IMG/VR virus record: IMGVR_UViG_3300009509_000001 | Span: 32,001 to 96,000 of that record | Direction: 5' to 3' (one strand) | Length of the DNA: 64,000 nt | From: a virus | In this document: one piece after another, positions 4,330 to 62,474 of the stretch | Position numbering within the stretch: position 1 is the stretch's first letter | Layout of the letters: each line of letters begins with the position of its first letter | Program-made: the position numbers and the translations under genes | Notes under the pieces: model-generated | Database searches by the model: none | What the model was told of the DNA's origin: nothing | The model's input: the letters and a program-made list of their open reading frames with translations, nothing else

Positions 4330-4340
4330 AGTTCTCTCCC

Positions 4341-17226: not shown

Positions 17227-17267
17227 TGTCACGGGTCCTTTTTGGTTTCCGTTTGGATTGCACCTAC

Positions 17268-25237: not shown

Positions 25238-25981
25238 CTACTTCAGGGGTTCGGGCACGCCACCTGCCGCCCATGATTTCGCGGATTCATGAAGACCAGC
25301 CGCAGCACCGCCGTAAAGCAACGTTCGAAGAGCCGTTGCGAGGGCGCCTTTGCCGGCGGTTTTCAACTTTGCACGCGTCGGGATGCCCGGCGCACTCTTT
25401 ATCTTTCCTGGGCTGACGTTCATCCCCTTCGGAGCATTTACTCCGATAGACATCTTCTTGGGCTTTCCAGCCTGGGCAGCCTCGAACTTGGCGAGTTCGC
25501 CTGCCTCGAGCTTGTTAAGATCGTACAAAGACTTCAAACCGCTCCCAATGCCAAAGACGGGTGCAGCGACTCCGGTGACCTTGGCTACGTTCCCGGTTGC
25601 GGCATCCGCAGCCGTCTCGAGAATCCCGCGATTGGCGAGTTTCTTCTTTTCGGCGAGAAGCTTGTCGTAATCTTCGTATTCCTTTTCCTTCTTCTTGCCC
25701 TGGGCCGACAGGTACGAGCCGACCCCGGCCCCGGCAGTGGCACCGAGGCCAGCGCCGAGTATGCCGGCACCCGCGCCCTTCAGTCCGAGCCCGTAACGCG
25801 TAAGCAGGTAGCCCATTCCGCCGCCGCCGAGAGTGGTCAATGCCAGAAGCATCGCACGTTGCTTGGATGCATCCTTGCTCGACGGCTTGGCGTCCTTCTT
25901 GTCTTCGTCGCCCGCTGTTTTGTAAAGTAGGTACTGTCGCACTGTCGGCCTCCTTATCGAGCCAGCTTGGTTTTGCTCCAA
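25238..25981 (-). CDS. Glycine-zipper membrane-type internal virion protein
   Basis: 247 aa; LLALTTLGGGGMGYLL and GAGILGAGLGATAGAGVG segments; LYKTA near the N-terminus. Confidence 0.65.
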   Translation of the reverse strand: MEQNQAGSIRRPTVRQYLLYKTAGDEDKKDAKPSSKDASKQRAMLLALTTLGGGGMGYLLTRYGLGLKGAGAGILGAGLGATAGAGVGSYLSAQGKKKEKEYEDYDKLLAEKKKLANRGILETAADAATGNVAKVTGVAAPVFGIGSGLKSLYDLNKLEAGELAKFEAAQAGKPKKMSIGVNAPKGMNVSPGKIKSAPGIPTRAKLKTAGKGALATALRTLLYGGAAAGLHESAKSWAAGGVPEPLK

Positions 25982-26685
25982 TCGATGACGCTGGCCGTTT
26001 TCGGCAAGGTTTCACCTGGAGGGAGCCCGGCATCCATCTCTGAAAATCCAGGAGCTCCTGAAAGTTGGTCTGCAGCGAGGGCCGCTGCCGCATTGTCGAT
26101 TTCGGACGGTTCGGCCTGCGCCGGCGTCGGTTCGGTATCGCCGCCCATGCCGACGTCACCGGCCGGAAGCTGCACGCCCATGGCTGCAGCCAATGCCGAC
26201 AAGCGATCGTCCACGGCCTGCATTTTGGCCATGATGTCCTTGTTCGTGGCGCGGCCGGATTCTTCTTTCTCCTTGCCGCCGCTCACTTCCTGCAAAATCT
26301 GCTGAAGGTCTTCGAGATTGAGCTGAACGGGGGTTCCCGCCGCCGCTTCCATCTCTTCCATTCCGGGCTCCGGGGGCATTCCGCCGCCCATTGCCATTGC
26401 AGCCATCGGATCACCGCCCATAGCTGCCATCGGATCACCGCCCATTGCGACCGGGTCCATCGGCATTCCGCCGCCGCCCATTGCGGCCATCGGATCACCG
26501 CCCATAGCTGCCATCGGATCACCGCCAGGAGGCATGCCACCCATTGCGGCCATCGGGTCCATCGGCGGGGCACCACCACCCATGGCAGCAGCCTGAGCTT
26601 CTTGCGTTACGGGGTTGAAGGCGTTCTTTTTCAGCCCGTTTCTGGCCTCGGCTGCCTGTTTCTTCAATAGGTTAAGGTCAATCAT
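25954..26685 (-). CDS. Low-complexity Met/Gly/acidic protein (MGGDPMAA repeats)
   Basis: Start at MIDLNLLKKQA (26685) with AGGAGG SD; repeated MGGDPMAA; lies between the RNAP genes. Confidence 0.7.
   Translation of the reverse strand: MIDLNLLKKQAAEARNGLKKNAFNPVTQEAQAAAMGGGAPPMDPMAAMGGMPPGGDPMAAMGGDPMAAMGGGGMPMDPVAMGGDPMAAMGGDPMAAMAMGGGMPPEPGMEEMEAAAGTPVQLNLEDLQQILQEVSGGKEKEESGRATNKDIMAKMQAVDDRLSALAAAMGVQLPAGDVGMGGDTEPTPAQAEPSEIDNAAAALAADQLSGAPGFSEMDAGLPPGETLPKTASVIDWSKTKLAR
26380..26560 (-). repeat. Coding tandem repeat of 24-nt units (MGGDPMAA)
   Basis: GCCATCGGATCACCGCC recurs four times (plus the start of a fifth) with 24-nt periodicity. Confidence 0.85.
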
Positions 26686-26716
26686 GATTCCTCCTGAGTT
26701 TCTATTTAATATAGTC

Positions 26717-29700
26717 TTATGCCTTGCTTTTTTCCAATATGACGATCGGCGTGTCGATGTCGATCTCCCCGGCGTTGAACGCTTCCTGCGCTTCGCGCAT
26801 GGTTCTGAACGTACGCTTGGCCTGGCCCTTGCCCGGCCGCGTGGCCAGATACAGCCCCTGTACGAACTGCTGGCGCGGTACGTAGTGGGCCGTGAAGTCA
26901 CGCGGACTCAGGAGGTTAGCTTCGGGCGTCATCTTGGCCCTGGCCTCCTCGACCGCCTCTTTGCTGACGGGAGCGTAATAGGTCACGCTGTCTCCGTCGA
27001 AATCCATACCGTAAGGTTCGACGATGCTGGGGCTCACCTGCACCGACTTGCCTTTGACGAGCACCGGTTCGAACGCCATGACTCCGTACTTGTGCAGCGT
27101 CGGTGCCCGGTTCACGATGACCGGGCGTTCCTTGACCGCTTCGTACAGGAAGCTCTCGGCCTTCTGATCGCGATCCTTCACGCGCTTGATGGCGTCGGTC
27201 GGCGCATAACCGCTCTTCACCATGTTGCGGACGACGAACGGCTCGAAGACGTCCCAGGCATCCTTGATCGGAATGCCGATCTTGTTAAGGGGCATGGACG
27301 GGTTCGGCGTCACGACGCCGCTTCCGGCCAGGTTCATGGCCGTACCGAGCACGCGGCGGTGATAGCCACCGTACTTGGCGCTCCCCTTTCCGAGTGCCCA
27401 CTTGAGCAGGCCCTGGACGTTCTTTTCCTGGAGCTTGGCGTCGTCGGGATCATACATCCCGGTGAGTGCCTTGTAGGTGTTGTACATCTGTTTGCGGGCG
27501 CCCTTTATACTGCTGTCGGGCAGTCGCTCGCGAGCCGAACGCATGTCGTCGCGGGCGAACACCAGGCTGCGGTACAGCATATTGGCATCGGCCGTGATGT
27601 TCGTGCCGTCGAGCTGCGTAACCGGGCGGAACTTCGGCGGGAGCACCGGGACACGCTCCATCATGAAGTCTTTCGGGTGAACGTCCTGTTCCTCCATGCT
27701 CTTCAGGAACCGGTAACGCTTGAGCGCCTTGTCCTTCTTGCTGGGCGTACTTCCCTTCAGATCCTCCATGGCGCCCTTGACCGCGGCCTTCATGTCGATC
27801 TTGGCCAGCGCCGCCTGTATGGCGGCTCCGCCGGTCTTGTCGCCGATGGCCTCTTCGCCGCTCATGACGGCGTTGAATTTCTTCTGCGTCATTCCGAGTA
27901 CGCTGGCGAGCGCAGGCTCCATGACCGGGTTCGGTAGTGGCTCGTCGAGCTGAATGTAACCCCAGCCGGTGCCGTCGTCTCCGAAAATCTTCGGATCGAA
28001 CAGGCCCCCGTCGATCGGCTTCATGGTCTTCTGGTCGAAGGTGCGGGCGACCCCGAGCTCATGGCCTTTGGCCAGATCCTTGGCCTGGCGGTCAGTCATT
28101 CCGAAAAAGTTGATGCGGTCGGGCTGCTCATCGACGTTGATGCCGGCTCCCTTCAGATGCTCGTAGAACTTCTTGTTGACGATGGGGGTGCTCGGCATCT
28201 TGGGCACGCGGCCCATGCGGAAGTCACGCCAGAACTCGTCGTTGGCCTGGCCGCGGATGAGCTTCGCGTCCTTGAGTACCTTCATGGCTCCGTGGCTCAC
28301 CAGCGCCGACGTGTGAAGTCCCCCGATGAACTTGGAACCATGCTTGCCGCCTCTGAGCGGCGTGTCCTCACCGGAGGACGGGCCGACTCCACGGCCTTTG
28401 CCTTTGTCCTCGGCCATATGCATCAGTCTGTAGTAGAAGGCTTCGCCTGTGAGGACTTCGGGTATCTTGCGGCCGGTCACGGGGTCATATAGATCTTCGT
28501 TGGCGCTCAGGCCGGCCTGCTTCAGTTTTTCCTCGTACTTATCAATCATCTTTTCGTCGAATCCTTCGACGATTTCGGGCTTCCCGGTCTTCCTGGCCAG
28601 CTTTCCGGCAAGCGCTTCGGTGACCTGCATCGGATTGACGCGGCTGATTATGCCGAGCGGGCTCAGCAGCACATCGTATGGGTTGCCGTCCTTGTCCAGC
28701 GGCATCTCGTTGTCGGGAAGAATGTTCACCACGCCCTTGGCTGCATATCGGCTGCTCATTTTGTCGCCGTTGCGCATGGGCACGTTGGCCCTGGTGTAAA
28801 CCGTGGCGTGCTTGTCGCCTTTGTCGGCTTCCACGACCTTGCCTTCGTAATCGTGATCCCAGGTTTCGACCACGGCCGTGCGGGTCTTGCGTCCCAGGCT
28901 GCCGGGCTTGGCCTCGTTGTGCCTGACGGCCACGATCATCGGGTCGCCCTTGCGCAACACGGTGCCGGGCTTCACGATCCCCTGGTCGGTAAGCGTGTCC
29001 ATCTGGTCCTTGGTGAATCGGCCGGAGAACTTGCCGATAAATTCCTTCTTGTCAAAAGCGGTGTTGGTGGAGACGGGTACGCGCTGCTTGTACATCTTCT
29101 CGGCGGCGAGCTTCTTGGCTGCCGATTCGGAGATCGTGATCGCGTCTTCGTATGCGTGACCCTTCCAGTTCATGTAGGCTACGCGCAGATTGCGGCCCTG
29201 GGCTGCGACGCCCTTGTCGTCCGTGTAGTTGGTCGTGGCCAGAACCTGGTTGGGTTTGACCTCGTCGCCGACCTTAACCTGCGGAATGCTGCGCAGGTAC
29301 CCCTTCTGGTTGAACGGGTGATTGTTGTACAGATCGTATGTCTCGGTGCCTTCGGGTCCGCGGATGGTGATGCTGTCGGCGTCCATGGCTGCAACAGTCC
29401 CCTTGATCGTGGACTTCCGCACACCCATCATCTGCCCGATGTCCTCTTCGGCCGTGCTGGTGCCCTGGCGACTGCGTACGAGTGGAGCTTCACGCTGCGC
29501 AAGCGGCATCGCCTGGACGCCGTACTTGCCACCCATCTGCAGGCGGTTGGACATGATCCCGCTCTTCCCGGGGACGCTGTTGGAGCCCTTGCTGAACATG
29601 TTGGAGTCGTCCATGATGTAGTAGTCCACGTCCTGCTTGGGGACGATCTTCACGCCCTTGCTTCCGTGGATGGCCGGAACGAACTTTCCCTTGGCATCGA

Positions 29701-36364: not shown

Positions 36365-38224
36365 CTACATCATGCCACCCTGGGCCTTTGCCTGGGTGAG
36401 TGCTTGCGACTGCACTCCCTGCTCCATTTTCTGCAATTCCTCTTTGACGAGTGCGCTCATGGTCGGGTCCGTCTTGTTCAGGTTCGCGAGCTGACTCTGA
36501 CGGTCAGGTGCAGAGAATACCTGCTGCGCGAATGCGGCCGCATCGGCCTGCATCTGATCCAGTGTCGGTGGTCCGCCACCGCCAACCGGCATTCCGGGTG
36601 CGGGCGCTCCGCCGGCCGCAGGCATTACGCCGCCGGCCGCTGGTGGTGCCGCTTCGCCCTGCGGAAGCCCCATGTTGGCCTGCGCCGCGTTCGGCGGGAT
36701 CTGCCCGGGTGGCGCCATCTGGACGTATTCGTCCAGCATCTGGGCCTTGGACTCCTTGGCGTTCTCTTCGCGTGCGTCGTCGGCCATTTGGCGACGTTCC
36801 TCCTTGAGGCGCTCGCGCTCGATCTCCGGATCGATGTGGAAAGCTTTGAGGGCCGTGGTCTGCGAGACGACGCCGGCGCTGGCCAGATTCAATTTGACCT
36901 GCTTGGTGACGTCGTCTTCCGCGATCGACACATAGACCAGGCGGCCGTGAATCTCTTTCCAGCCGATCTGTTCGCTGCAGGCTTCGAGATACCAGTTTAT
37001 CCAGGTCGAGATCGGATCGGTGAAATGGCTCCAGCTGCGTTCGAAGGCTCTGAGGCCGATCGGTGGTCCGTTGACGGAAGCGAAGCTGCTGCGGTAGAAT
37101 TCGGTGGCCACGCCCATCGTGGTCAAAAGCTGGTCGTATCGGCGCTCGATCTGCTCGGCCGGGGTGATGCTCTGGCCTTCACCGCCGGCGATGTTGTAAT
37201 CGACGGGGGCCGGCAGCGTGTGCCAGCCGGTCGGATCGCTCTTGTGACGGCTGATCATGGCCTTCACGTTGCCCATGAAGTTCTGCATGCCGAAAGTCTG
37301 CAGCGGGTCGACGCCACCCTTGGTGGTGGCTGGCGTCAGATAACGGAGCGGGACGATCCAGTCGCTGGCGATGGCTTCGTCGAAACGCTCGAGCATCTGA
37401 AGCTGCACGACCTGACTGAAACAGCTCATGAACAGGGGTATTCCCCACCCGTCGTTAAGCCTGAATCCGCCTGCGGCCGGTTCGATCGAAAGGTGCTTGA
37501 AGGTCTCCGGGTCGAACCGAAGTCGTGTGCGGTCCTTGACAGCCTCGATGAACTCCCATGGAATGGAGCATAGCGACAAGTGGTCGCCCTTCTGGATCTT
37601 GCCGGCGCTTCGGCCGTCGATCCGCAGATAGAACTCGCGGCGGCCGCTCAGGCGGCAGAAATCGATCTCGACGTCGCGTGGGTCCCAGCGGATGACGACG
37701 AGCCCGCTCTTGTGGCTCTTGTCCTGTGAATCCTTGCGCTTATGTGCGCCGTGAAAGCCGCACGCTGGACAGGTGGACAGAAATTCATAGCCGGCCGACC
37801 ATTTGTAGTCGATGTCGGGCTTGAGTTTTTCGAGCACGCGGGTCATTCCGCACTCCGGACACTGGATGGACCGGTTGATGGGAAGCGTCAGACTGGTAAA
37901 GCTGTTGCCGAACCCGATAAGGTCGTCACCGACCAGACCGGCGTTCTCCAGGATGTTGAAGTCGCGATGGAGCTGGAGCGTGTAGTCCTTCCGCTCCGCG
38001 ACGCTCAGGTCCTCCCCATAGATCTCGAGTTCGTTCAGGAAATATCGAATGGACCGTTTGATGGCCATCGTATAGACGCCGTGACGATTCCACAGCCATT
38101 CCGCCCACTGAAGGACCTCGTCCATCGTGCGCGGGTATATGAGATTGGCGTAGGTTCTAAACGGATTCGCTACGCCCGTTGAGTCCAGGTCCCTTTTGTC
38201 GTATGGATTCAGCTCTATTGGCAT
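36365..38224 (-). CDS. Portal protein with zinc-ribbon insertion
   Basis: 619 aa; DDLIGFGNSF, W.P..V, WGIPLFMSC and ASAGVVSQTTAL motifs typical of portals; CPECG...CPACG insert; M/P/G/Q-rich tail; heads the head module. Confidence 0.75.
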   Translation of the reverse strand: MPIELNPYDKRDLDSTGVANPFRTYANLIYPRTMDEVLQWAEWLWNRHGVYTMAIKRSIRYFLNELEIYGEDLSVAERKDYTLQLHRDFNILENAGLVGDDLIGFGNSFTSLTLPINRSIQCPECGMTRVLEKLKPDIDYKWSAGYEFLSTCPACGFHGAHKRKDSQDKSHKSGLVVIRWDPRDVEIDFCRLSGRREFYLRIDGRSAGKIQKGDHLSLCSIPWEFIEAVKDRTRLRFDPETFKHLSIEPAAGGFRLNDGWGIPLFMSCFSQVVQLQMLERFDEAIASDWIVPLRYLTPATTKGGVDPLQTFGMQNFMGNVKAMISRHKSDPTGWHTLPAPVDYNIAGGEGQSITPAEQIERRYDQLLTTMGVATEFYRSSFASVNGPPIGLRAFERSWSHFTDPISTWINWYLEACSEQIGWKEIHGRLVYVSIAEDDVTKQVKLNLASAGVVSQTTALKAFHIDPEIERERLKEERRQMADDAREENAKESKAQMLDEYVQMAPPGQIPPNAAQANMGLPQGEAAPPAAGGVMPAAGGAPAPGMPVGGGGPPTLDQMQADAAAFAQQVFSAPDRQSQLANLNKTDPTMSALVKEELQKMEQGVQSQALTQAKAQGGMM

Positions 38225-51105: not shown

Positions 51106-51792
51106 TTAGGGTCTAAGGCGCCCTTCAACGCCGCGCTTCTCGCGGTCGCTCGTGCGCTTGTTCATCCACATGAGCGCCTCTTCCAGACGCATGATGGCCT
51201 GCTCGTTCTCCTTGCAGGCGTACTTGCCGGCCTGGAACGCCTGCATGCGGTCGATGATTATGGCGATCAGCGGCTCGTGCTGCAGACCGTTGACGCCGTT
51301 GTGCTTGACGGGGCCTTCCTGGAAGTGGATGCTCATCAGGCTGCGGCCGTGGTCCGTGTCGTCGTTGCTGAACACCTCGTACTGGTGGCACGCTCCGCCG
51401 GGACCCGGCCGGTCCATGCTGCAGACCTCAAGGGCCTTGTCGCTGTAGATCACCCGCACGTGCTCGGGCACGTCCACGATCTTCGGCGCTTCGGCCTTCG
51501 GCTTGTAGACCGGGGGCGTGAACGTGATCTCGTGGGCCGGATCGCCGTCGACGAATATGGTGAACGTCGTGTGGTCGATGTGCTGGGCCTTCTGCAGCGT
51601 ATGGTTGTCGAACACGTAGCCCAGGATGTGCGCGTAGTGCGGCGAATCCTGCAGCATGTCGTGGAACTCGTCGGGAACCCGGATGAACACCACCCGGTCC
51701 TGCCCGCGGTACTGCCGGAGCGCACGGCGCAGCGGGGTCGTGTCCACGCGCTCCAGGTAAAGCTCGTTCGGTGTCGGTATGTAGTCTGCCAT
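51106..51792 (-). CDS. tad1: Tad1/Acb2-family immune-signal sponge with extra N-terminal domain
   Basis: C-terminal ~100 aa: GPGGACHQY...IHFQEG...NG...LIAIIIDRMQAFQAGKYACKENEQAIMRLEEALMWMNKRTSDREKRGVEG, matching the recalled Tad1 pattern GPGGA.H.Y...FQKG...DRL..FQAG...REN..A....EEALMWMN.R..DR..R.V.G. Confidence 0.8.
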   Translation of the reverse strand: MADYIPTPNELYLERVDTTPLRRALRQYRGQDRVVFIRVPDEFHDMLQDSPHYAHILGYVFDNHTLQKAQHIDHTTFTIFVDGDPAHEITFTPPVYKPKAEAPKIVDVPEHVRVIYSDKALEVCSMDRPGPGGACHQYEVFSNDDTDHGRSLMSIHFQEGPVKHNGVNGLQHEPLIAIIIDRMQAFQAGKYACKENEQAIMRLEEALMWMNKRTSDREKRGVEGRLRP

Positions 51793-51802
51793 TGTATCCT
51801 CC

Positions 51803-52564
51803 TTATGTCGATAAACTTATGTTGTCCGTCAGTGCGTTCTTCGCCGCATCCAGCTCGGCCTGAAGCTTCTTCCATTCGGCGCTCATGTCGAGTCCGAACT
51901 CGGCCAGGGCCGTCTGCTTGCTGACCACTCCGGCCTGCATGGCCTTCATGAACACGTTCGGCTGCGTGTTGGGCGTGCCCTGGAACTGTACCGGCTGTTT
52001 GAACTGATGCCACTTGCCGACGCCCTGTTTCTTCGGCGCCATGCGGCCCTGCGCATAGGCTTCGCGGATGACCATGTTGGCCAGGCGCACGTCTATCTTG
52101 CAGACGCGGACGACGTCCTGGCGCTGGAACCACGGACTCTTCTTGGACTTGCACCACTCGCGAATCTTCTCGATGTGAACGTCCAGCGACTGCTTGGACA
52201 CCACGGGCCATCTGGTCCACCGCCGAAACCGCGGTTTTTTATGCTCGCGAGTAATCCTGATGCCGCCGATCGCCTGCATGTCCATGCGGTCGACGTGGTT
52301 GCCCGGAAAGACCTGCATGCCCCAAAGGGTCGGCTCGGCCATGCCGTGACTTGTCTGATACTTCTGACTGCGCCGAAGCCCGTCGTAGGCCGCCGGCGGG
52401 ATCATCAGCGCCACGTTGTCGGCGTCGATGCTCGCCCGGTTCAACCCTGCCCAGGCGCCTGCGGCCGCCAGCTCCGAGAGCGTGATGCCCATGGCCTGGG
52501 CGGTCGCTTCGCGCTCCGACAGCTTCTTGGGGTCCTGCAGCATGTTCTGATTCTGGTACATCAT
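51803..52564 (-). CDS. wHTH-like protein with portal-like C-terminal segment
   Basis: Start at MMYQNQ; FQRQDVVRVC...ANMVIREA...GKWHQF; ends AGVVSKQTALAEFGLD. Confidence 0.7.
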   Translation of the reverse strand: MMYQNQNMLQDPKKLSEREATAQAMGITLSELAAAGAWAGLNRASIDADNVALMIPPAAYDGLRRSQKYQTSHGMAEPTLWGMQVFPGNHVDRMDMQAIGGIRITREHKKPRFRRWTRWPVVSKQSLDVHIEKIREWCKSKKSPWFQRQDVVRVCKIDVRLANMVIREAYAQGRMAPKKQGVGKWHQFKQPVQFQGTPNTQPNVFMKAMQAGVVSKQTALAEFGLDMSAEWKKLQAELDAAKNALTDNISLST

Positions 52565-53217
52565 GGTCTGAACGCCTCGCCGAACATGGTGTTCTTGTAG
52601 AATTCGTTCATCATCTGCTCGCCGAACTCCTTCGGTATGGTCGCGCTTCCGCTGCGGGCCATGTTCTTGAGCGTGGCGACGCGGCGCTTCCACCAGCGGC
52701 CCGACCGCTCGATCAGCTTGTAGCTCTCGGCGTCCTTGAGCATGCGATGGGCCTTGCTCTTCGTGACGTCGAACTCCTTCATGACCATGCCACGGTTGAT
52801 GTAGCTGCTGCCGGTCTGTTCCTCGCGCCGCTTCAGCATGTCCTCGATCTGCTCGTAGTGGAGCCAACGGGCGCCGACGTTGAAATTCACGGCCTTGACG
52901 GCGCTGGCGTTGGCTACGCTGGCGCCGACCTGCTCGCGCACCCGGAACTGCATCATGTATGCCTTGTCCTTGCCGACGGCCGGATCGACGTGGACGTCGA
53001 ACGGCTGGTTCTGGTACTCGCTCATGAAGCGCTTCCGGACATCGTCCTGCCGATGCGGTATGAGCGCTGCGTGCGGGTTATTACGCGGGATGGTTATCAC
53101 CACTTCCTGCGGCGGCACGGCCTTGAGCCGGCCGTTCTTGTCGATGGTCACGAAGCCGTCGCCGTACAGCAGGGCGTCGCGCGTCGCCTTCTCCATTTCG
53201 TGTTCGAACTCTGTCAT
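52561..53217 (-). CDS. wHTH-like protein with portal/terminase-like motifs
   Basis: YINRGMVMKEF...AHRMLKDA...IERSGRWW; N-terminal DALLYGDGFV, FMSEYQNQP, VDPAVG. Confidence 0.7.
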   Translation of the reverse strand: MTEFEHEMEKATRDALLYGDGFVTIDKNGRLKAVPPQEVVITIPRNNPHAALIPHRQDDVRKRFMSEYQNQPFDVHVDPAVGKDKAYMMQFRVREQVGASVANASAVKAVNFNVGARWLHYEQIEDMLKRREEQTGSSYINRGMVMKEFDVTKSKAHRMLKDAESYKLIERSGRWWKRRVATLKNMARSGSATIPKEFGEQMMNEFYKNTMFGEAFRP

Positions 53218-53697
53218 TTATCGTACCTCGAATTTAACGTCTATTACATGGGCCGGCTGTTGAACCGTCACGTCGACCAGCAGCCTGTTCGGATCGTTCG
53301 GGTCCACGCGCACCTCGTCCACGTCGAAGATCTTGCGGGCGAACCCGTCTTCGCGCTGGCGCATGCGCAGGTAGTCGTTGGACGCCTTGGCCAGTGCCTT
53401 GGGCTCGGTCGTCAGCTCGTACCATTTACCGACGCGCTTGGCCTTGAGCATGGTCACCGCCCATTTCAGGATCTTGGCCGCCTCCGCCTCCGTCAGATTC
53501 GCGTGACGAAGCAGGTCGCTGCGCCGCACGTAGAACTTTCCGTTCTCGTCCGGGTTCTTGCCGGCCGTGGCCTTGGCCACCACGGAGTCCCATACGGGTC
53601 CGTAGGCCAGGCCGTCCTCGAGATCGTCGAGCAATCCCTTGATGATCGCCTGGTTCACTCTGGTCAGCTTCGAAACCGTTTCGTCGAATGCTTTCAT
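53218..53697 (-). CDS. wHTH-like protein carrying a copy of the MCP N-terminal segment
   Basis: FYVRRSDLL...AAKILKWA...VGKWYEL; NDYLRMRQREDGFARKIFDV. Confidence 0.75.
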   Translation of the reverse strand: MKAFDETVSKLTRVNQAIIKGLLDDLEDGLAYGPVWDSVVAKATAGKNPDENGKFYVRRSDLLRHANLTEAEAAKILKWAVTMLKAKRVGKWYELTTEPKALAKASNDYLRMRQREDGFARKIFDVDEVRVDPNDPNRLLVDVTVQQPAHVIDVKFEVR

Positions 53698-54155
53698 GTC
53701 GTCTCCGGCGCCTTGTGTTTGTACGGATGTCTGTCCGGTAGTTGGTCGTACAGCCCATGTCGATGGGCCATGTAGCCTTCCACCTTCTCGCGGATGGCGG
53801 TCTGCCGGTCCTTGAACCGGTACCAGCAGCCGTTGGCGTGCCGGAGCATGCCGCCCCTGATCAGGGTCTCGAGCGCCTCTTCGGCTTTCGGCCCGAACAG
53901 ACGGAAGAGCTCCGACCGGCAGGTGTAGACGCAGCCCGACTCGTCCGGCGTCTTCCGCTCCAGGAACTCGGCGAGCTTAGTGCGGTAGTGCGTGAACGTC
54001 TGCGGCCTCGGGATGTCCTCGTGCACGACGGCAAACCCGTTCGTGATGGCCTTCACGCTTATGACTCCGTCCTCCGGGTCCTTGAAGCTGACGAACTCGC
54101 TGTCCATCACTTGCGGAACGACGGGCGACGGGAAGCTCATGCCGTAGGTGTTCAC
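53694..54155 (-). CDS. wHTH-like protein carrying the tail-fibre module C-terminal motif
   Basis: VYTCRSELF...AEEALETL...NGCWYRF; ends EGYMAHRHGLYDQLPDRHPYK. Confidence 0.75.
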   Translation of the reverse strand: MNTYGMSFPSPVVPQVMDSEFVSFKDPEDGVISVKAITNGFAVVHEDIPRPQTFTHYRTKLAEFLERKTPDESGCVYTCRSELFRLFGPKAEEALETLIRGGMLRHANGCWYRFKDRQTAIREKVEGYMAHRHGLYDQLPDRHPYKHKAPETT

Positions 54156-54418
54156 AGAATGTCCTCGTTGGTCAGGGCCTTACGCACTTCGGCCAACAGC
54201 CCTTCCTGGTTCACGTAATGTCGTTTGCTGTGCTTGCCGCTGGCCCACCGGCCGTTGACGCGCAGTCTGTATTTGTAATCGTCGGCGGGATCGTTGGTCC
54301 ACTGGGATTTGCGGAACACTTCGATCCTGCATGAGCCTTCCCGCCCACGCAACAAAGTCAGGTTGCCCACGGGTAGTCGTTTCTCAGCCATTTGTCGGTA
54401 CCTTTGCTTCTTGGCCAT
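54152..54418 (-). CDS. Basic hypothetical protein
   Basis: 88 aa; first gene after a terminator/promoter gap. Confidence 0.6.
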   Translation of the reverse strand: MAKKQRYRQMAEKRLPVGNLTLLRGREGSCRIEVFRKSQWTNDPADDYKYRLRVNGRWASGKHSKRHYVNQEGLLAEVRKALTNEDIL

Positions 54419-54520
54419 GGCATTTCACGGGCGGTTCGCCTGAGCGCCATTGCAGCTTCGTTTACGGCTAATATGCGGCGTTACAGCGGCAACTTCAAGC
54501 GCTGCCGGAAAAAAGGCATG

Positions 54521-54547
54521 AAAAAAGCCGCCGGTCGACCCGGCGGC
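54521..54547 (-). terminator. Rho-independent terminator
   Basis: GCCGCCGG-GTCGA-CCGGCGGC then TTTTTT. Confidence 0.8.
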
Positions 54548-54572
54548 CAGGGAGAGAAGAGTCCGAAAGGGT

Positions 54573-54818
54573 TCAACGGACTCCGATGGCGTTCAATTTC
54601 TCTATGATCAGGTCATGGATCTCCGGGGCGGCCTCCTTCCCGGTAAAGTCCACGAATTTGTCGTCCAGGCTTCGGTATGCCGTGGACGTAACTGGTACCT
54701 TGGTCCCGAACAGGACCGTCAGGTCGAAGATGCTGCGTCTGATGGTCACCAACACCAGAACGCGCCCCTCCACGTTGTCTTTGCCGAGGTATCTTACCTC
54801 CTTCGTCATTGCCTCCAT
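54573..54818 (-). CDS. Hypothetical protein
   Basis: 81 aa; AGGAGG SD. Confidence 0.65.
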   Translation of the reverse strand: MEAMTKEVRYLGKDNVEGRVLVLVTIRRSIFDLTVLFGTKVPVTSTAYRSLDDKFVDFTGKEAAPEIHDLIIEKLNAIGVR

Positions 54819-54836
54819 GCCTCCTAGCGTTTGGCG

Positions 54837-55283
54837 TTACAGAAACTTCTCCAGCTCGTCGTTGAGCTTCAGATAGCCTTCAGGGGCTTTGTCGCCCTTG
54901 AAAATCAATTCGACCTTTGCCTTCGTGTTGCGGCTGAACATGCCGCGGCGCATTTCGATGCTCATCTCGTGCTTGCACTCGTCGTCGTCGCACTCGTGTT
55001 CGTCCAGGCCACCGATCTCCACGTCGAACTCCATGCGCATCTTGTCGAGGCGAATGCCGCTGGCTGGCATGAGCGCAAGCATCGGCACTTCGATCTCTCG
55101 CATGGCTCCATCGCCGCCCGGCACCGGAACCTGCAGCTTGAGGGTCTTGACCTTTCCGTCCTCGTCGATGTGCTGCTTGATCGTATCAAGATGCTGGTTG
55201 CGCACCAGTTCCTGGGCCTTGATCACCGCGTTCTGCAGCGCCCGTATAAGTTTGCTCAGTCCCGTTACTCGTTTGTGTGCCAT
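54837..55283 (-). CDS. DUF2589-like protein (partner type)
   Basis: L..LIRALQNAV..AQ......IEVPMLALMP.S...D.M.MEFDV...I.L...G...PEG..KL. Confidence 0.65.
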   Translation of the reverse strand: MAHKRVTGLSKLIRALQNAVIKAQELVRNQHLDTIKQHIDEDGKVKTLKLQVPVPGGDGAMREIEVPMLALMPASGIRLDKMRMEFDVEIGGLDEHECDDDECKHEMSIEMRRGMFSRNTKAKVELIFKGDKAPEGYLKLNDELEKFL

Positions 55284-55540
55284 TACATCTTAACCCTGTG
55301 TGTTACGATTCCGACCTTCTTGACGACGGTGATGCCGCGCGCCGACTTCATCTCGCAGTAAGAGGAGTCCAGCGCCTGGCTGCTGCAGCCGCGGCCCACG
55401 ATGTAGCCGCAGGCCGTGCAGACTTCGACCATGGCGGTGCCGTCGCACCCACTGCACTTGCGCGTCCGCTTCTTCGGGTCGCGGCCCGTGCCGTTGCAGT
55501 CCGGGCAAATGCCCTTCTTCGTATCGAGCCGACCGATCAT
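55283..55540 (-). CDS. Zn-finger protein (DnaJ-type CxxCxGxG)
   Basis: CPDCNGTG...CSGCDGT...CTACG. Confidence 0.6.
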   Translation of the reverse strand: MIGRLDTKKGICPDCNGTGRDPKKRTRKCSGCDGTAMVEVCTACGYIVGRGCSSQALDSSYCEMKSARGITVVKKVGIVTHRVKM

Positions 55541-55914
55541 GGCTGCTCCTTGTACCATTTATCGTAGTATTTGTCGTCGCTTCCCAGAACCCGTCCGGCA
55601 TACTTCCGCATGTTGACCTTGCAGTTCTTGCACGTCACGTCGTCGATTACTTTGGTCTTGTCGTACCCTGTATGCTCTCGGGCGAAACCGCATTGGTGTA
55701 CGCCGTCGTAATGAACTTTCAGCGCTTTCAGCGCTTTCACGGCAACCGGCTTCTTACGGGATGCCTTCTCGCGCTCCGCCCGCTTCTTCTCTTTGTACTC
55801 ACGCGTCTTCACCATCTGCCTGAGTGTGCTGCAGAAGGAGCTGCATGTCTTCTGGTTGGCCCTATGTGCGTAATACGGTTTACCGCACATGCGGCATATA
55901 CGGCGTTTCTTCAT
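55537..55914 (-). CDS. Basic Zn-finger protein
   Basis: CRMCGKPY...CSSFC; HQC...CKNC. Confidence 0.6.
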   Translation of the reverse strand: MKKRRICRMCGKPYYAHRANQKTCSSFCSTLRQMVKTREYKEKKRAEREKASRKKPVAVKALKALKVHYDGVHQCGFAREHTGYDKTKVIDDVTCKNCKVNMRKYAGRVLGSDDKYYDKWYKEQP

Positions 55915-56201
55915 AATACCGGCTGCTCCTCCGTGATACGCGGCTGTCTGGTAAATCCGATGTGGTAGACTATGTGCTGGAGCACTACCTGGTGCTCGCC
56001 CATCTGGTACACGGCGAAGCCTTTCTCCTGCCCGATCAGCTTGCCCCTTGGGGACGACCGGTTGATGAGGAAGTTCACCTTGTCCATCGCCTTTCGGATC
56101 TCCTCTTCCGTCTTGATCCTGCTTGGATCGGTGTTACCCACGACGACCCGCTCTACGTGTCGGATCGCCGTGAGATCGAATGGTTTGTCGTCGTGCGACA
56201 T
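55911..56201 (-). CDS. Conserved-looking hypothetical protein
   Basis: 96 aa; coupled to the DUF2589 gene; R.VVG..DP...GEHQVVLQ...YHIGF.R.P. Confidence 0.7.
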   Translation of the reverse strand: MSHDDKPFDLTAIRHVERVVVGNTDPSRIKTEEEIRKAMDKVNFLINRSSPRGKLIGQEKGFAVYQMGEHQVVLQHIVYHIGFTRQPRITEEQPVL

Positions 56202-56836
56202 CAGGGCGTTGTTGCCGGGGTTGGGCTGATGGCGTCGTTCATCATGTCGAGAACGCGGGCCAATCCTTCAGGCATGCCGCTGTCCGACGCACTGACCGTG
56301 ACGTCGTACTTGGCGCTGTTGTCGCTCTTGCGCGTGTGCGCCGAGTGCGACGAGGTCTTGCCATGCACCTTGACCGTGGCCTTGAACGGACCCCAGCCGA
56401 CACTGGCGCTGCCTTCGAAGCCGGCTTCGCTGTCGCTGGCCTCGGTGTCCTCGGTACTGGAGTTGACGCTCATGGTGAAGGCGATGTCCACCTTGTCGAC
56501 CTTGAGGGACGGCATGGGGATGATGGCCAGCAGCGGTACGTCGATCTCCACGTTCTTCGGGGTGATCTTGGAAACCGTCTTGGTCTTGTCGGCCGGGTCC
56601 TCCACCTGTTCAAGGATGTTCTGCATGTAGCCGAACTTCACCATGTTGGCGACCTTGATCGTCTTGGTCTTGTCGGCCGGGTCCTCCACTTCCTGGAATC
56701 CGGTCTTCAGAATGAAATCCGCGTTCGCACTGATCATCTGCGCGTTCGCCTTGGCTGCGGCCTGCAAAGGGCCGCCGATCAGGGAATCCATCGGCAGGTT
56801 GCCGAATTGTTTACCCATGTCTACGAGTCCAGGCAT
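56201..56836 (-). CDS. DUF2589 family protein
   Basis: QFGNLPMDSLIGGPLQAAA...VPLLAIIPMPSL...GWGPF...TRKSDNSAKYDV.V.A...GMPEGLARVLD; GGAGGT SD. Confidence 0.8.
   Translation of the reverse strand: MPGLVDMGKQFGNLPMDSLIGGPLQAAAKANAQMISANADFILKTGFQEVEDPADKTKTIKVANMVKFGYMQNILEQVEDPADKTKTVSKITPKNVEIDVPLLAIIPMPSLKVDKVDIAFTMSVNSSTEDTEASDSEAGFEGSASVGWGPFKATVKVHGKTSSHSAHTRKSDNSAKYDVTVSASDSGMPEGLARVLDMMNDAISPTPATTP
56576..56689. repeat. 30-nt exact direct repeat inside the DUF2589 gene (VEDPADKTKT x2)
   Basis: CGTCTTGGTCTTGTCGGCCGGGTCCTCCAC at 56576-56605 and 56660-56689. Confidence 0.9.
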
Positions 56837-57910: not shown

Positions 57911-58219
57911 TTACCAGGAAGTATTCTGCGGATGGTGCACGGCCTCGGGCGGCGTGTCGTCGAAGAGTATGCGGTGCGGCTGCACGTCGAAGATGATGCG
58001 GTACTGGATGCCGGCCCGCTCCATGTCGGCCAGGATCGTGCGCTTCGTGTTCTCGATGCTCCAGGGCTTGCCGTGGTCGTGCAGGCCGCGCATGGTGATG
58101 AGTATGATGTCATGGCCCTCGTCGTGAACGCGCTGCAGCCGCTCGAAGGCGCCGGGCAGCCACTCGCCCGTGTGGTAGTTCACGAGCGTTCCGTCAATGT
58201 CGTAGATGTGCGTGCTCAT
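57911..58219 (-). CDS. HAD-superfamily hydrolase (short phosphatase-like)
   Basis: Start at MSTHIYDIDGTL (DxDGT motif I), LITMRG (motif II), ILFDD. Confidence 0.75.
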   Translation of the reverse strand: MSTHIYDIDGTLVNYHTGEWLPGAFERLQRVHDEGHDIILITMRGLHDHGKPWSIENTKRTILADMERAGIQYRIIFDVQPHRILFDDTPPEAVHHPQNTSW

Positions 58220-58497
58220 CGTATGAACCCATAGGCTATGAGTCCGGCGCTCAGGCCGACGATGATCCAGAAGCACCAGGCCATGACCTTGGCCCTGCGG
58301 GCGGACACCTTATGCTGCGGCGTCCAGTTGTTGGCGTCGGCGATTCGCCGCGCTTCGGCCTTGGCTTCCTTGTACGCTTCCTTCTTCTGGCGCTTGTGCC
58401 GCTCGGCCAGCTTGCGCTTGTTGGTCGTACGGTGGCTGTTGTGCTTGCGGTTCCAGTTGAGGGTCCTGCTGCGCTCCTGGTTGTTCACATAGCTCAT
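58216..58497 (-). CDS. Basic protein with C-terminal TM helix
   Basis: K/R-rich, ending VMAWCFWIIVGLSAGLIAYGFI. Confidence 0.65.
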   Translation of the reverse strand: MSYVNNQERSRTLNWNRKHNSHRTTNKRKLAERHKRQKKEAYKEAKAEARRIADANNWTPQHKVSARRAKVMAWCFWIIVGLSAGLIAYGFIR

Positions 58498-58736
58498 GGG
58501 ATCGTGTACTCCATCACTTCGTTGAAATCCTTGATGGCGGCCTGGGCGTTCGGATGCGGATCGGTGCCGGCGCCACGCTGGTTGCCGTTGATGAAGAACT
58601 GCCAGCGCCAGAAACTGTCATGTCCCTTGGTGGCGGCCCCGCCCGTGTAGGGCTCGGTCGGTTTTCCGCAATGCTCCTTCATGCCGGGGCCGCGGCCGCC
58701 GCACTCGGTGCATACCATCATCAGTCGTTGCGTCAT
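58494..58736 (-). CDS. Small Zn-finger-like protein
   Basis: CTECG...HCG; AGGAGG SD. Confidence 0.6.
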   Translation of the reverse strand: MTQRLMMVCTECGGRGPGMKEHCGKPTEPYTGGAATKGHDSFWRWQFFINGNQRGAGTDPHPNAQAAIKDFNEVMEYTIP

Positions 58737-58746
58737 GTCATCCTCC

Positions 58747-60267
58747 TTATAGTCTTACCCACCAGACGTAGTCGTCTTCCAGGTGAAGTTCCAATTTGGC
58801 CGTGGCCACGAACTCGTCGACGGCCTGCTTCACCTGTGGTCCGAAGGTCGTGCCGTTGCGCGTCGGGTGGTTGTAGTCGTGGCCCGCCAGTATCCCGCCG
58901 GACTTCACGCGGTTTCGCCACATTGAAATGTCCTTGGACACCGCCTTGTAGCTGTGGTCCGCATCCAGGAACACCAGGTCGAACAGGCTGCCCGGCGTGT
59001 TCCTGTACGCCTGTTCGCTCGTGGCCTTTCGCACACGGATGCGCTTACCATACGGGTACAGCGCCCACATGGCGTCCAGCATGTTTAGTCGATGCCGCTT
59101 GTCGTCCTGGTTGGCGATGTAGTCGCCGGTCGCCGCATACTCGCTGCCCGTCGGCGGCGGCGCCCAGACGTCGACCGCCAGTATGTTGGCGGATGGAATG
59201 GCTGCGGCCAGGTAGGCCGTCGTCTCGCCGCGGTAGACGCCGATCTCGGCGATGCGTGGATTGGCGATCCCATCAAGAAGCCGGTGGAGTACACGGGCAC
59301 GCCCATACGGCGCACGCGGCTCCGGCCGCTCATCATAGCGGGCCAGCTTTATCGGCATCTTCTCGAAGTGCTCCCACTGGCCACTGAAGCCGCTAGTGTC
59401 CTTACGTAGCCACGTAGTGGTGAGTTCGCTTCGATCACTGATCGTCGTGTAGCCACGGATGGCTATGTGCGGAACACCGTCACGAAAAGCCACGACCCAC
59501 CACCATTCCATGCGGCTGCAGCCCTGACCAATGGTTCCGTCTGCCCGAAGCTCGATGTCCCTGGAGTCGTGGCCCACGCGTTCATACTTGTAGAATCCGG
59601 CGAACTCCTGATAAAGCTCGTAATCCTCGAACGGCATGTCCAGGTGATGGCTCTCGGCAAGCTGGTCGCCGGCACTCTGCAATGACCGCCACTTGTGGGC
59701 GCCGATCACGGGGATGCCGGCCTCGATGGATTCCCGCGCCGTCACCAGCCAGTTGAACACCCGTGGCAAATATGATACCTCGACGTCCATAATCCCGACG
59801 GCCATGTTCAATGCCGTCTGCTCCATGAACGGACTTGCGTCCAGTATGACGTCCTCGGTGAGCCGCCGGGCCACCCGCAGATAGTCGGCGTGCCCTCTGT
59901 TCATGATCATGAGACCTGCGTTGAAGTAGTTGGCCGACGTGGCGCCAAACTTCTCCATGCATTCGTCGATGACATGGGCGGCGTAGTTGACGTCCCTTAC
60001 CACCTGGAGCTTGCCGTCAATAACCTCCGCCGGGTTCCATTGTCGGCAGAACAGGATGTCAGCGTCGAAGTAGATCACTGTGTCGGCGTCCACGTAGTCG
60101 AACGCATACGTGCGCATGAGCGACGGGTTCAAGCATCCGCTGTCCTCGTACTCACGGTCACCGAGGATCGTCACGGGCAGGCCCGTACAAAGCTCGAAGC
60201 GCCGTGCCGCTTCCTGCGCCAGCGGCAAGTGTCCGCCGGTTCCTACAGTCAGTCCGATCATATTCAT
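58747..60267 (-). CDS. GT8-like glycosyltransferase fused to a class I SAM methyltransferase (Methyltransf_24-like)
   Basis: YFDADILF (DxD), YFNAGLMIMN; C-terminal IAEIGVYRG, VFLDADHSY, GGILAGHDY. Confidence 0.8.
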   Translation of the reverse strand: MNMIGLTVGTGGHLPLAQEAARRFELCTGLPVTILGDREYEDSGCLNPSLMRTYAFDYVDADTVIYFDADILFCRQWNPAEVIDGKLQVVRDVNYAAHVIDECMEKFGATSANYFNAGLMIMNRGHADYLRVARRLTEDVILDASPFMEQTALNMAVGIMDVEVSYLPRVFNWLVTARESIEAGIPVIGAHKWRSLQSAGDQLAESHHLDMPFEDYELYQEFAGFYKYERVGHDSRDIELRADGTIGQGCSRMEWWWVVAFRDGVPHIAIRGYTTISDRSELTTTWLRKDTSGFSGQWEHFEKMPIKLARYDERPEPRAPYGRARVLHRLLDGIANPRIAEIGVYRGETTAYLAAAIPSANILAVDVWAPPPTGSEYAATGDYIANQDDKRHRLNMLDAMWALYPYGKRIRVRKATSEQAYRNTPGSLFDLVFLDADHSYKAVSKDISMWRNRVKSGGILAGHDYNHPTRNGTTFGPQVKQAVDEFVATAKLELHLEDDYVWWVRL

Positions 60268-62474
60268 CGCAAGCGCTCCCTGCCTTCGTCCCAGTCACGT
60301 ATCTTCAGCGACCAGCCTGGGTCGGGCCACCAACGGTGATCACGGCCGCTCGGATTGAACTCATGGCCGCCGCCGTAGGGTATGGTGAACTTCTCGCCTC
60401 CCGGTGCTCCGCCCCATTTCATGCGGTAATGCGTAGCGTTCCAGTTGCCGAAGGTGTTACGGTTATGCTTGGCATATACCGGGTCGCTGCCGACGGTCCG
60501 GCTTCCGCCGCCACTCTCGATGTCCACCGCGCCTATCTCCATGGGCGCGTCCATGGTCGTCTCCGTACCCGCATTGCATCTGGGCAGGTGGTAGTATTTG
60601 GCCCCAGCCAGTTCGCAACGCCTGACGAAGTCGTTGTCCTCGAAATAGGCCGGGTAAAAGTTCTCGTCGAACCAGCCGACCTTGTGTATGAACGACGTAT
60701 GAAGTCTGAAGGCGTTGAAGCCGCCGAGCATCCACAATACATCGTCGGGGCCGCACGGAACCTGCTCCTCCATATACGCGAGTGTCCCGGGCAGCAGCCG
60801 GGTATCGTTCGAGCTTATGGTTATGCGGTCGTACCCAAGTGACATTCCATGCATGACGATCCTATTCCAGGAAGCGGCCACACCGAGATTGTACCTGGGT
60901 GAATACAGATCGAACTTCAGTTCCCTGGACATGGCCTTCAGCCTGTCGTTGAATTCCTGATCGTAAGTGTTGTTGTTGACTACGAATATATCGGCCGGGT
61001 AGTCGATGGATCGTACGCACTGTTCAAGAAGGTCGATCCGGTTGAGTACCGGTATTCCCACGAACACGCGGCCACTTCCCCCGCCATGGGCCGCCGGGGC
61101 ACTGATCATACGCTCCTCCACTCTACGGCATACGCACAGGAAGGACCAATCTTCCTGCACAGGTTCACATTTGATTACCTCGAATCCACCTATAAGCCTT
61201 ATAACACGGCAAAAGCTGTCCATAGTGAATGAATGCTCATGCGTAGGATCGAGGTTAATGGTTCGGTTGCCTCCACGGCGCAAGCCGTCTTCATCGGGAA
61301 CCACTACGGCCATATGCCCGCCTGTCTTCAGCACACGCTTCCATTCCTGGAGCGTCTTCACGTAGTCTACGTAATGCTCGATGTTGTGTCTGGCTACAAC
61401 GAAGTCCAGTTCCCCGTCCGCAAACATATGTAGATCATCTCCGCTGGCCTGTATATCGGCCTGGCTGGGCTGTCCCGCAGTACAGCCGACGGAACCCCGC
61501 TGGCCGGCAGCTACAAGGTCAACGCCTATACAGTTTGCCGATGACTTTCGATGCCCACACCCGACATCAACTCCTTTACCTTTCAGGCAGTATGGGAGTA
61601 CAGCGAGCCGCTCCGGGTGCATGGCCTCGCCGCCATTCGGCGGAGGGTACAGCATCTGCGCGTATTTACCCTGATCCTCCTGAACTGTGCGGGGCAACGC
61701 CTCGTCCACAGGAACGGCTGTATACCGGTGACGGCGTCCAAACAGATCATCGCCGGTTTCCAGGCACCTTATTATGTGTTCCGGGTTGAGTGCTATCCCA
61801 GCGTGCTCGGTATGCGCGTAGGCCATAAGCTTAGCACATATGGCATCAATGCCTCCCTGGAAGCTATAATGCCACCCGGCCGGGCAATCCAATAAATATG
61901 TGTGCACTCCGCGTTTACGCATGACATCACCGTTAAGGTCCGTTCCACGCATGCCCTCCTCATGTGTGAATATAGTCCCTGCACACCACAAACCTTCCTC
62001 AGCCTGCAGGTAGTTCAGGAAATAGTAATAAGTTCGCGTCGGTACGCGACACTGGTTCTTGGCAGGGTCGAATACCTCGTAAGCCGACGAATGCGGGATC
62101 TCGTCAAGATCGAATACGCCGATGACGTCACGTGGCTCAGAGTGAGGCTGCTCGTGTAGGCATGTGACGTGACAGTCATAGTAGCCCGAAGCCCCCTGGC
62201 TCGTCGTGCTTCGCTGGAAGTTCTCGCGGAACCAGACGCCACCAATCTCCGTAAGGTCGACCATTATGTACTTGATCTTATGATGCCATGGCTTGAAGCG
62301 GTCCCAATTATCCTTCAGGTACAAAGGCTTGTCGGGTCCTGCATGCGCTTGGTTGGCCTCAGCTATGACGAACACGTCGACGATCTCATCCAGTTCTCGT
62401 AGGCGCAGCTCCAATAGATCCAACTCGTTGAAAAAGGTTACACAATCATATACACGGCGTCCGTCTTTTCGCAT
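60264..62474 (-). CDS. Three-domain fusion: GT17-like, SAM methyltransferase, GT2-like
   Basis: YDCVTFFNELDLLELRL...DLDEIP...GWHYSF; GVDVGCG...WKRVLKTGG; GIPVLNR...GWFDENFYPAYFEDNDF. Confidence 0.8.
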   Translation of the reverse strand: MRKDGRRVYDCVTFFNELDLLELRLRELDEIVDVFVIAEANQAHAGPDKPLYLKDNWDRFKPWHHKIKYIMVDLTEIGGVWFRENFQRSTTSQGASGYYDCHVTCLHEQPHSEPRDVIGVFDLDEIPHSSAYEVFDPAKNQCRVPTRTYYYFLNYLQAEEGLWCAGTIFTHEEGMRGTDLNGDVMRKRGVHTYLLDCPAGWHYSFQGGIDAICAKLMAYAHTEHAGIALNPEHIIRCLETGDDLFGRRHRYTAVPVDEALPRTVQEDQGKYAQMLYPPPNGGEAMHPERLAVLPYCLKGKGVDVGCGHRKSSANCIGVDLVAAGQRGSVGCTAGQPSQADIQASGDDLHMFADGELDFVVARHNIEHYVDYVKTLQEWKRVLKTGGHMAVVVPDEDGLRRGGNRTINLDPTHEHSFTMDSFCRVIRLIGGFEVIKCEPVQEDWSFLCVCRRVEERMISAPAAHGGGSGRVFVGIPVLNRIDLLEQCVRSIDYPADIFVVNNNTYDQEFNDRLKAMSRELKFDLYSPRYNLGVAASWNRIVMHGMSLGYDRITISSNDTRLLPGTLAYMEEQVPCGPDDVLWMLGGFNAFRLHTSFIHKVGWFDENFYPAYFEDNDFVRRCELAGAKYYHLPRCNAGTETTMDAPMEIGAVDIESGGGSRTVGSDPVYAKHNRNTFGNWNATHYRMKWGGAPGGEKFTIPYGGGHEFNPSGRDHRWWPDPGWSLKIRDWDEGRERLR

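Follow-up and report, generated by a model that had tools for sequence, protein, structure and literature searches.

A copy of the capsid-protein N-arm, kept at the end of a winged-helix accessory protein of a large phage, as a probable molecular mimic

Introduction

Why does a large uncultured phage carry, in a small gene of its own, a second copy of a short piece of its major capsid protein (MCP)? The initial annotation of the DNA studied here had noticed such a copy in an accessory gene. It proposed that the copy is conserved at the protein level, rather than being a fresh duplication of DNA. We analyzed the gene, its relatives, and its neighborhood, and weighed what the copied piece may do.

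Results

The MCP and its N-arm motif

The window—the whole stretch of 64,000 nucleotides that was analyzed—corresponds to bases 32001–96000 of a complete virus record of 194,576 bp, which has direct terminal repeats, a G+C content of 59%, and nearly all of its genes on the minus strand. The source of the copy lies in its first quarter.

14244–15212, minus strand: MCP gene, 322 aa, source of the copied segment
15057–15116, minus strand: MCP N-arm motif NNYLRLRQREEGFARKFYDV, residues 33–52

The MCP was identified by its match to phrog_2522, the major head protein (E 5e-7), and its profile matches the Gp27 MCP of PDB 6wkk_A (E 7e-6). The MCP of Salmonella phage Arash is 25% identical to it, although Arash does not carry the accessory gene. 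In IMG/VR, we found 80 relatives of this MCP, which share 37–83% identity and come from phages of 150–235 kb. Across 30 MCPs (38–83% identity), R41, E42, G44, and R47 of the arm motif are invariant, while D43 and F45 are conserved in more than 90%. K26 and A28 of the putative processing site, IRKQA, are likewise invariant in the 30 sequences. The arm motif begins five residues past A28, in agreement with the earlier observation that the segment lies just after this site. The AF2 model of the MCP, built from a five-sequence alignment, has a pLDDT of 34; segments were therefore placed on the HK97 fold by combining what is generally known of that fold with profile positions and predicted helices.

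One candidate, a 115-aa “short MCP” (P0002), was rejected as a fragment gene, as it represents the MCP gene of a relative, either split or wrongly assembled. In the close relative L045 (JGI Ga0452204_139471, positions 3971–4883), the MCP annotation consists of two ORFs, one of 115 aa and one of 177 aa; the gene may truly be split there, or the break may stem from a frameshift or from an error in assembly.

The accessory gene encodes a two-part protein

The 159-aa ORF that bears the copy is a real gene encoding a protein of two parts.

53218–53697, minus strand: accessory gene, 159 aa, with a long helix, a winged helix, and an MCP-arm tail
53404–53697, minus strand: residues 1–98, N-terminal helix and winged helix-turn-helix (HTH), AF2 pLDDT 75–91
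53320–53379, minus strand: MCP N-arm motif in the accessory protein, NDYLRMRQREDGFARKIFDV, residues 107–126, 15 of 20 residues identical to MCP 33–52
53221–53319, minus strand: tail, residues 127–159, a diverged continuation of MCP residues ~53–75, at the start of the E-loop

Its codon usage (GC3 0.82, GC2 0.36) resembles that of the real genes of this genome. A GGAG sequence lies 6–9 nt 5′ of the ATG, and the ATG overlaps the stop codon of the upstream gene.

In the AF2 model built from the family alignment, a long helix (residues 2–45) is followed by a strand (56–58), two helices (59–66 and 70–82), and a hairpin (86–89 and 92–95). The three-helix core and the β-hairpin wing that define a winged helix are thus both present in a confidently modeled region. 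The top Foldseek matches are Sso10a, CRP/FNR, MarR, and IclR; these are weak, with a best E of 2.2e-3 and TM scores of 0.26–0.45. The matches in the Atlas (TM 0.39–0.45) and in BFVD are likewise winged-helix proteins. No Pfam HTH family scores above the cut-off in the 159-aa protein. K47, G53, Y56, and G90 of the core are invariant in eight family members and paralogues. The long helix is reminiscent of the Sso10a coiled coil, so that the 159-aa protein may form a dimer. Beyond the core, AF2 predicts a helix at residues 100–124 that contains the arm motif, at low confidence, and the tail is disordered, with a pLDDT below 50.

How closely does the second part resemble the MCP? Both peptides were found at the positions first reported, on the minus strand. 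By BLASTP, accessory residues 107–152 align with MCP 33–71 over 46 columns with 50% identity and two gaps past the motif, at an E of 3e-9 pairwise and 7.6e-7 against the phage's own set of 222 proteins. Moreover, a profile of 30 MCP sequences recovers the accessory segment among 11,663 stop-to-stop frames, with an E of 8.5e-6. The conserved positions of the MCP arm are kept: R115, E116, D117, G118, F119, and R121 correspond to R41, E42, D/E43, G44, F45, and R47. The profile covers positions 27–62 only in the 159-aa protein, and a P- and A-domain match, which would span most of its ~310 positions, was not found. Neither Pfam nor PHROG yields an MCP match in the accessory protein.

The residues following the motif had been likened to the C-termini of tail-sheath proteins. 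This likeness did not hold up: the sheath models PF04984 and PF17482 match nothing in the whole genome, and the best proteome matches of the tail, VDPNDPNRLLVDVTVQQPAHVIDVKFEV, have E values of 0.7 or higher. The alignment indicates that the tail is better read as a diverged continuation of the MCP into the first strand of the E-loop. Outside the window, positions 25383–28028 of the virus record encode an 881-aa homologue of the Arash virion protein gp236, which belongs to no family; a faint, non-significant likeness (E 0.1–44) links its C-terminus (residues 854–878) to two tails, that of the 159-aa protein and that of the ORF preceding the family member P0005.

An old copy whose peptide has been retained

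The 20 codons of the two segments differ at 12 nucleotides, of which seven are synonymous and five are non-synonymous. The proportion of synonymous differences, pS, is 0.55 and thus near saturation, as compared to a pN of 0.11 (omega ~0.11; Fisher p = 0.002). The initial annotation had counted 11 differences over 59 nt. That count and the five substitutions (N/D, L/M, E/D, F/I, and Y/F) stand, while the split has to be corrected to six synonymous and five non-synonymous differences, instead of five and six. In all seven synonymous differences, the MCP has a codon ending in T or A and the accessory gene has one ending in G or C. The pS of the copy equals that between the orthologous MCPs of the phage under study (G000) and its 83%-identical relative G001. 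Since the synonymous sites are near saturation, pN is low, and pS matches that of orthologous MCPs, we conclude that the copying event lies far back and that the encoded peptide has been maintained. At the DNA level, the identity does not extend beyond 60 nt, and the flanking sequences are no more alike than expected by chance. The proposed protein-level conservation is therefore borne out, with the motif also being the part best kept in four homologues. These substitution patterns indicate that the arm copy is under purifying selection within a small protein family. A role of the repeat at the RNA or DNA level and a DGR-like template were both rejected, given the 60-nt limit of the identity, the nearly saturated synonymous sites, and the random flanks.

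From which MCP was the arm derived? At D108, D117, and I123, the accessory copy has the clade-wide MCP consensus (ND, RED, and KI), where the phage's own MCP has NN, REE, and KF. The YLR, RQ, FARK, and DV elements are common to the accessory copy and the own-lineage MCP. Moreover, pN is lowest toward the own-lineage MCP (0.11–0.13), as compared to 0.21–0.22 toward the nearest accessory homologues, P0006 and P0007. The copy shares own-lineage residues and follows the clade consensus elsewhere, and therefore was derived from the MCP of the high-GC subclade. By the same pattern, it remains inside the sequence space permitted to the arm.

The arm motif is the best conserved part of the accessory family

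No close relative of the accessory protein was found in phage records, in IMG/VR, or in a word-indexed set of 5.8 billion proteins, which returned only the protein itself. An exhaustive phmmer search of 1.84 billion representatives recovered four remote homologues of 136–254 aa, with 27–35% identity and E values of 3e-12 to 2e-6. We propose that the accessory protein and these homologues (P0001 and P0005–P0008) are a family defined in sequence by a winged-helix core followed by DYLRxRxRED(G/S)FA(R)KIF. No Pfam or PHROG model represents it. The mean pairwise identity within the family is 0.56 in the motif, 0.24 in the winged-helix core, and 0.16–0.17 elsewhere, and residues 107–126 are the most conserved 20-residue window. 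Each member matches the MCP profile at the N-arm positions 24–62 (single-sequence E 3e-10 to 1e-6). In addition, the tails of the homologues retain a PAD/PxDP element, comparable to TPADLD of the MCP, while the K-x-A site is not conserved in the family. In P0008 (254 aa, Logan SRR13425446), the segment AQGAISQQTAMRQFGIDPGAEYERMRQE follows the arm motif; it resembles the portal-like segment of ORF 51803–52564 of the window and portal residues 443–476.

The specificity of the motif was examined with a DNA pattern for DYLRxRxRED.F. In IMG/VR as searched—2.9 million viral contigs, possibly with the phage's own record left out—the pattern has no match. Among 241 million metagenome records it has 43 matches, comprising 33 full MCPs of the clade, three members of the accessory family, and seven chance matches in unrelated frames. 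By this measure, the motif occurs almost only in the clade MCPs and the accessory family. Free drift in relatives and wide occurrence as a generic motif, the two outcomes named beforehand as speaking against conservation, were both looked for and neither was seen, as the motif is specific and is the part best conserved in the homologues.

The gene lies in a winged-helix array beside a Tad1 homologue

The accessory gene is one of four coupled genes with a winged-helix core, which overlap or abut.

54526–54548, minus strand: intrinsic-terminator-like hairpin with a 9-bp stem (eight GC pairs) followed by TTTTTT, ending the upstream unit
53694–54155, minus strand: upstream paralogue, 153 aa, winged-helix core HMM E 4e-21, C-terminal motif KVEGYMAHRHGLYDQLPDRHPYKHKAP
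52561–53217, minus strand: downstream paralogue, 218 aa, core at residues 129–177, HMM E 2e-7 (its sequence being absent from the model build)
51803–52564, minus strand: fourth array gene, ~253 aa, weak winged-helix core, HMM E 0.17
51106–51792, minus strand: homologue of Tad1 (Thoeris anti-defence 1), 228 aa, directly 3′ of the array and three genes past the 159-aa gene

The paralogues carry other virion-like pieces. The 153-aa protein has three matches (E 2e-7 to 4e-6) with a 940-aa, fibre-like virion structural protein (window 5049–7871, minus strand; phrog_10356), in which its C-terminal motif occurs thrice, at residues 223–252, 680–714, and 912–938. Residues 83–113 of the 218-aa protein resemble the MCP C-terminus, 280–310 (MCP profile E 0.032), and its top match in the phage's own proteome outside the array is the MCP (E 0.061). 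The N-terminus of this protein is also portal-like (phrog_27442, E 9e-8; the portal phrog_12, E 0.01). Segment 202–235 of the fourth gene product resembles residues 443–476 of the portal (window 36365–38224), with 41% identity over 34 aa; this is its top own-proteome match (E 0.086). The MCP C-terminus and portal matches of these two paralogues are each borderline, at E 0.03–0.09. For three of the four array genes, the 159-aa gene included, the best own-proteome match is a virion protein.

Residues 134–225 of the Tad1 homologue match Tad1 of PDB 8kbb_A (E 9e-23), five further Tad1 chains, and phrog_2428 (E 5e-37). The homologue has a 130-aa N-terminal extension of unknown kind. On contig L047, a Tad1 homologue lies directly upstream of the family member P0006, and linkage to Tad1 is seen in two of the four visible contexts. 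A search for Tad1 in nine relatives that are lower in GC or more distant (eight with MCP fragments, plus G005) yielded no homologue.

An 88-aa ORF (54152–54418) lies 3′ of the terminator and is followed by the array, and a weak promoter-like sequence, TTGAAG-17-CATATT, is present downstream of the terminator. We found no shared promoter motif by which the operon could be dated. Between window positions 54400 and 54600, no operator-like inverted repeat was found, the only such element being the terminator hairpin. The other neighbors are non-structural: DUF2589 proteins, an HD phosphohydrolase, and an MmcB-like nuclease. Two DUF2589 paralogues are located upstream of the array (window 54837–55283 and 56201–56836, minus strand), and DUF2589 pairs also occur near the winged-helix array of the relative that bears P0007. 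Spread by a homing endonuclease was considered, since an HNH gene adjoins the MCP fragments of the relatives G002 and G003, and was rejected, as no endonuclease turned up among the array-flanking genes that we examined.

MCP pieces recur in the clade

Are MCP pieces displayed elsewhere? Contig L048 has at least four tandem winged-helix paralogues; MCP 97–151 forms the end of one of them (profile E 1e-15), and the arm motif forms that of the one after it, P0007. The lower-GC relatives are without the winged-helix family and have small ORFs made of MCP pieces. In G004 (IMGVR_UViG_3300035698_012088, positions 147553–148019), two adjacent stand-alone ORFs of 87 and 59 aa correspond to MCP 97–154 and 30–74. 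The order of the pieces, spine helix and then arm, is common to these mini-ORFs and the L048 array. In G002 (IMGVR_UViG_3300022868_000014) and G003, spine-helix pieces adjoin an HNH gene at a distance of 2 kb from the MCP. Among 30 more distant relatives, six have MCP pieces (arm, E-loop, spine helix, or C-terminus) in other frames. Within these genomes, fragments of other large genes are rare.

Several further arrangements were observed in these relatives. In G002 (59815–61942), and in the same way in G003, the HNH endonuclease ORF is directly 3′ of the MCP gene, and the spine-helix fragments of G002 (61327–61942) contain an internal tandem repeat, KKRYEVKFDSKVTARYSADSMVTARYSAED. In G002, the gene immediately preceding the MCP (58131–58727) has a second copy 13 kb away (71790–72575), which is 82% identical over 204 aa and is fused into a 261-aa protein. 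Long tandem arrays of paralogous ORFs of 90–125 aa are present in G002 (1.5–12 kb) and G004 (135–146 kb); these share a C-terminal motif of 16–20 residues at 70–90% identity, while the rest is diverged. At locus L163 (G013, 52500–56500), a 240-aa frame joins MCP 80–106 (E-loop) directly to MCP 286–310 (C-terminus), followed by an unrelated helical part; it looks like an internally deleted mini-MCP.

Discussion

What does the arm copy do? Because selection has preserved it, we regard the accessory protein as a probable molecular mimic. What the surviving explanations share is most likely competitive mimicry of the free MCP arm. We propose that the tail would occupy the protein surface that normally recognizes the free arm of new, unassembled capsid protein.

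Which protein would own this surface? We rank a host immune sensor of virion proteins first, as a tentative choice. It ranks highest because the gene is coupled to paralogues—two of them with capsid-, portal-, or fibre-like pieces—with Tad1 directly after them, and because the surroundings are non-structural and the array as a whole presents pieces of several virion proteins. We infer both the binding and the identity of this target. Moreover, the arm motif is near-invariant in 30 diverged MCPs, and therefore is a stable feature that a sensor or another partner could read. The array would then be a set of decoys for several epitopes, presumably produced before the real virion proteins, in which each winged-helix carrier may display another piece: the MCP arm, the MCP C-terminus, the portal, the fibre, and, in a relative, the MCP spine helix. 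That the four-gene array and its counterparts in relatives work with Tad1 as such a multi-epitope system, blunting the sensors of virion proteins, is conceivable and somewhat more doubtful than the host-sensor target itself. Several points count against a decoy. Known capsid sensors become active once they bind their trigger, and a decoy must therefore bind without activating. The winged-helix domain is without a role in a pure decoy model, and the one hint of early expression is a weak promoter-like site. The occurrence of Tad1 in two of the four visible contexts, its absence from the nine other relatives, and the borderline MCP C-terminus and portal matches also weigh against it. In the literature searched, we found no description of an MCP-fragment decoy, nor of any phage gene assembled out of parts of the phage's own capsid protein.

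Alternatively, the tail might dock on the phage's own assembly machinery, either at the C-terminus of the scaffold or in the groove of a neighboring MCP that receives the arm. The winged-helix protein would thereby be tethered to capsomers or procapsids, as a timer, a chaperone, an anchor for cargo or DNA, or a titrated regulator. The pieces copied in the clade—the N-arm, E-loop strands, spine helix, and C-terminal strands—correspond to the regions of the HK97 fold through which a subunit touches the scaffold or its neighbors. In 80alpha procapsids, the helix-and-hook at the scaffold C-terminus binds mainly the MCP N-arm helix, which is its main grip, and CpmB competes for this site (PMC5644958). 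The putative scaffold of the phage studied here (window 16180–17283) ends in an amphipathic helix after a KTA site, and the virion of the related phage Arash packs 116 proteins (PMC10585845). Against such docking, 38 kb separate the gene from the head module, its surroundings are non-structural and include Tad1, and the N-terminus of the accessory protein (MKAFDETVSK...) is without a K-x-A site. Furthermore, a free arm copy in quantity should poison the phage's own assembly. We consider docking a possibility of slightly lower rank than the host sensor.

The accessory protein could instead be a winged-helix regulator of the Tad1 operon, in the manner of the Aca proteins, with its MCP-derived tail serving, without any mimicry, as a linker or an oligomerization helix, or else as a sensor of the late phase. 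HTH regulators beside anti-defence genes are the rule for Aca proteins, and both the fold and the unit shared with an anti-defence gene fit this picture. A regulator of this kind is nevertheless unlikely: conservation peaks in the tail rather than in the winged-helix core, the four tandem paralogues bear different virion-like pieces, the operon is preceded by no operator-like inverted repeat, and no Pfam HTH model reaches its cut-off.

Slightly less probable still is a weapon against co-infecting related phages or satellites, in which the arm copy would poison their capsid assembly and spare the phage's own diverged MCP. The three positions at which the copy follows the clade consensus would suit such a weapon, as would the near-invariance of the motif across a large clade of 150–235 kb phages. 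However, these three positions are the only ones that differ in this way, 15 of the 20 residues are still identical to the own MCP, and pN is lowest toward the own-lineage MCP (0.11–0.13, versus 0.21–0.22 toward P0006 and P0007); such a weapon is also without precedent.

A neutral scar, left when illegitimate recombination put a piece of the highly expressed MCP gene in frame, is highly improbable: partial duplications are common in these genomes (the 82% copy of the pre-MCP gene in G002, the tail-fibre paralogues) and an HNH endonuclease adjoins the G002 MCP fragments, but the omega of ~0.11 with synonymous sites near saturation, the position of the motif as the best conserved part of a family at 27–35% identity, and the recurrence of MCP pieces in many lineages, where fragments of other genes are rare, largely rule it out.

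If the tail is a mimic, phages turn short pieces of structural proteins into separate, selected genes. It would also pinpoint a surface of the capsid protein that is important to a partner, whether that partner belongs to the assembly machinery or is a host immune sensor. In a hunt for such a partner, the conserved motif and its separate copy can serve directly as bait. As MCP pieces occur in many relatives of the 150–235 kb clade, the principle may be general. The decoy array, if real, would represent a new class of anti-defence genes built from the phage's own structural genes.

How does this protein compare with known systems? Its tail is homologous to the N-arm of HK97-fold MCPs of the phage G gp27 type (PDB 6WKK; PHROG 2522), and keeps the R, E, D, G, F, R, K/R, and I residues. 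In contrast to these MCPs, the accessory protein holds only MCP ~27–75, with no P- or A-domain or capsid fold, fused behind a winged helix.

The Gol region of T4 gp23, a short part of the MCP, is read by the host protease Lit together with EF-Tu. An MCP also triggers the CapRel SJ46 host defence (PMC13728456, on CapRel and CBASS). In both systems, a local part of the MCP is recognized by a host defence protein, which gives a phage a reason to present that part on a separate protein. The trigger there is a part of the MCP itself, whereas here a separate gene carries the piece.

In the SaPI1 protein CpmB and the 80alpha scaffold, we see another likeness, as the helix of the MCP N-arm is a hub for competing binders (PMC5644958). 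CpmB, however, mimics the scaffold—the binder of the arm—and is encoded by a satellite, while the accessory protein copies the arm and is encoded by the phage. With the Aca regulators, it shares the small HTH-type design and the placement in one unit with an anti-defence gene; this is a likeness by context, and four tandem paralogues with virion-like pieces and no operator repeat set the array apart.

A further parallel to the proposed decoy is DSAD1, a phage inhibitor of DSR2, which reportedly occupies a host sensor that otherwise binds a virion protein, the tail tube. To our knowledge, DSAD1 is not a copy of a virion protein. The similarity of the accessory protein to a virion protein, in contrast, is one of direct homology.
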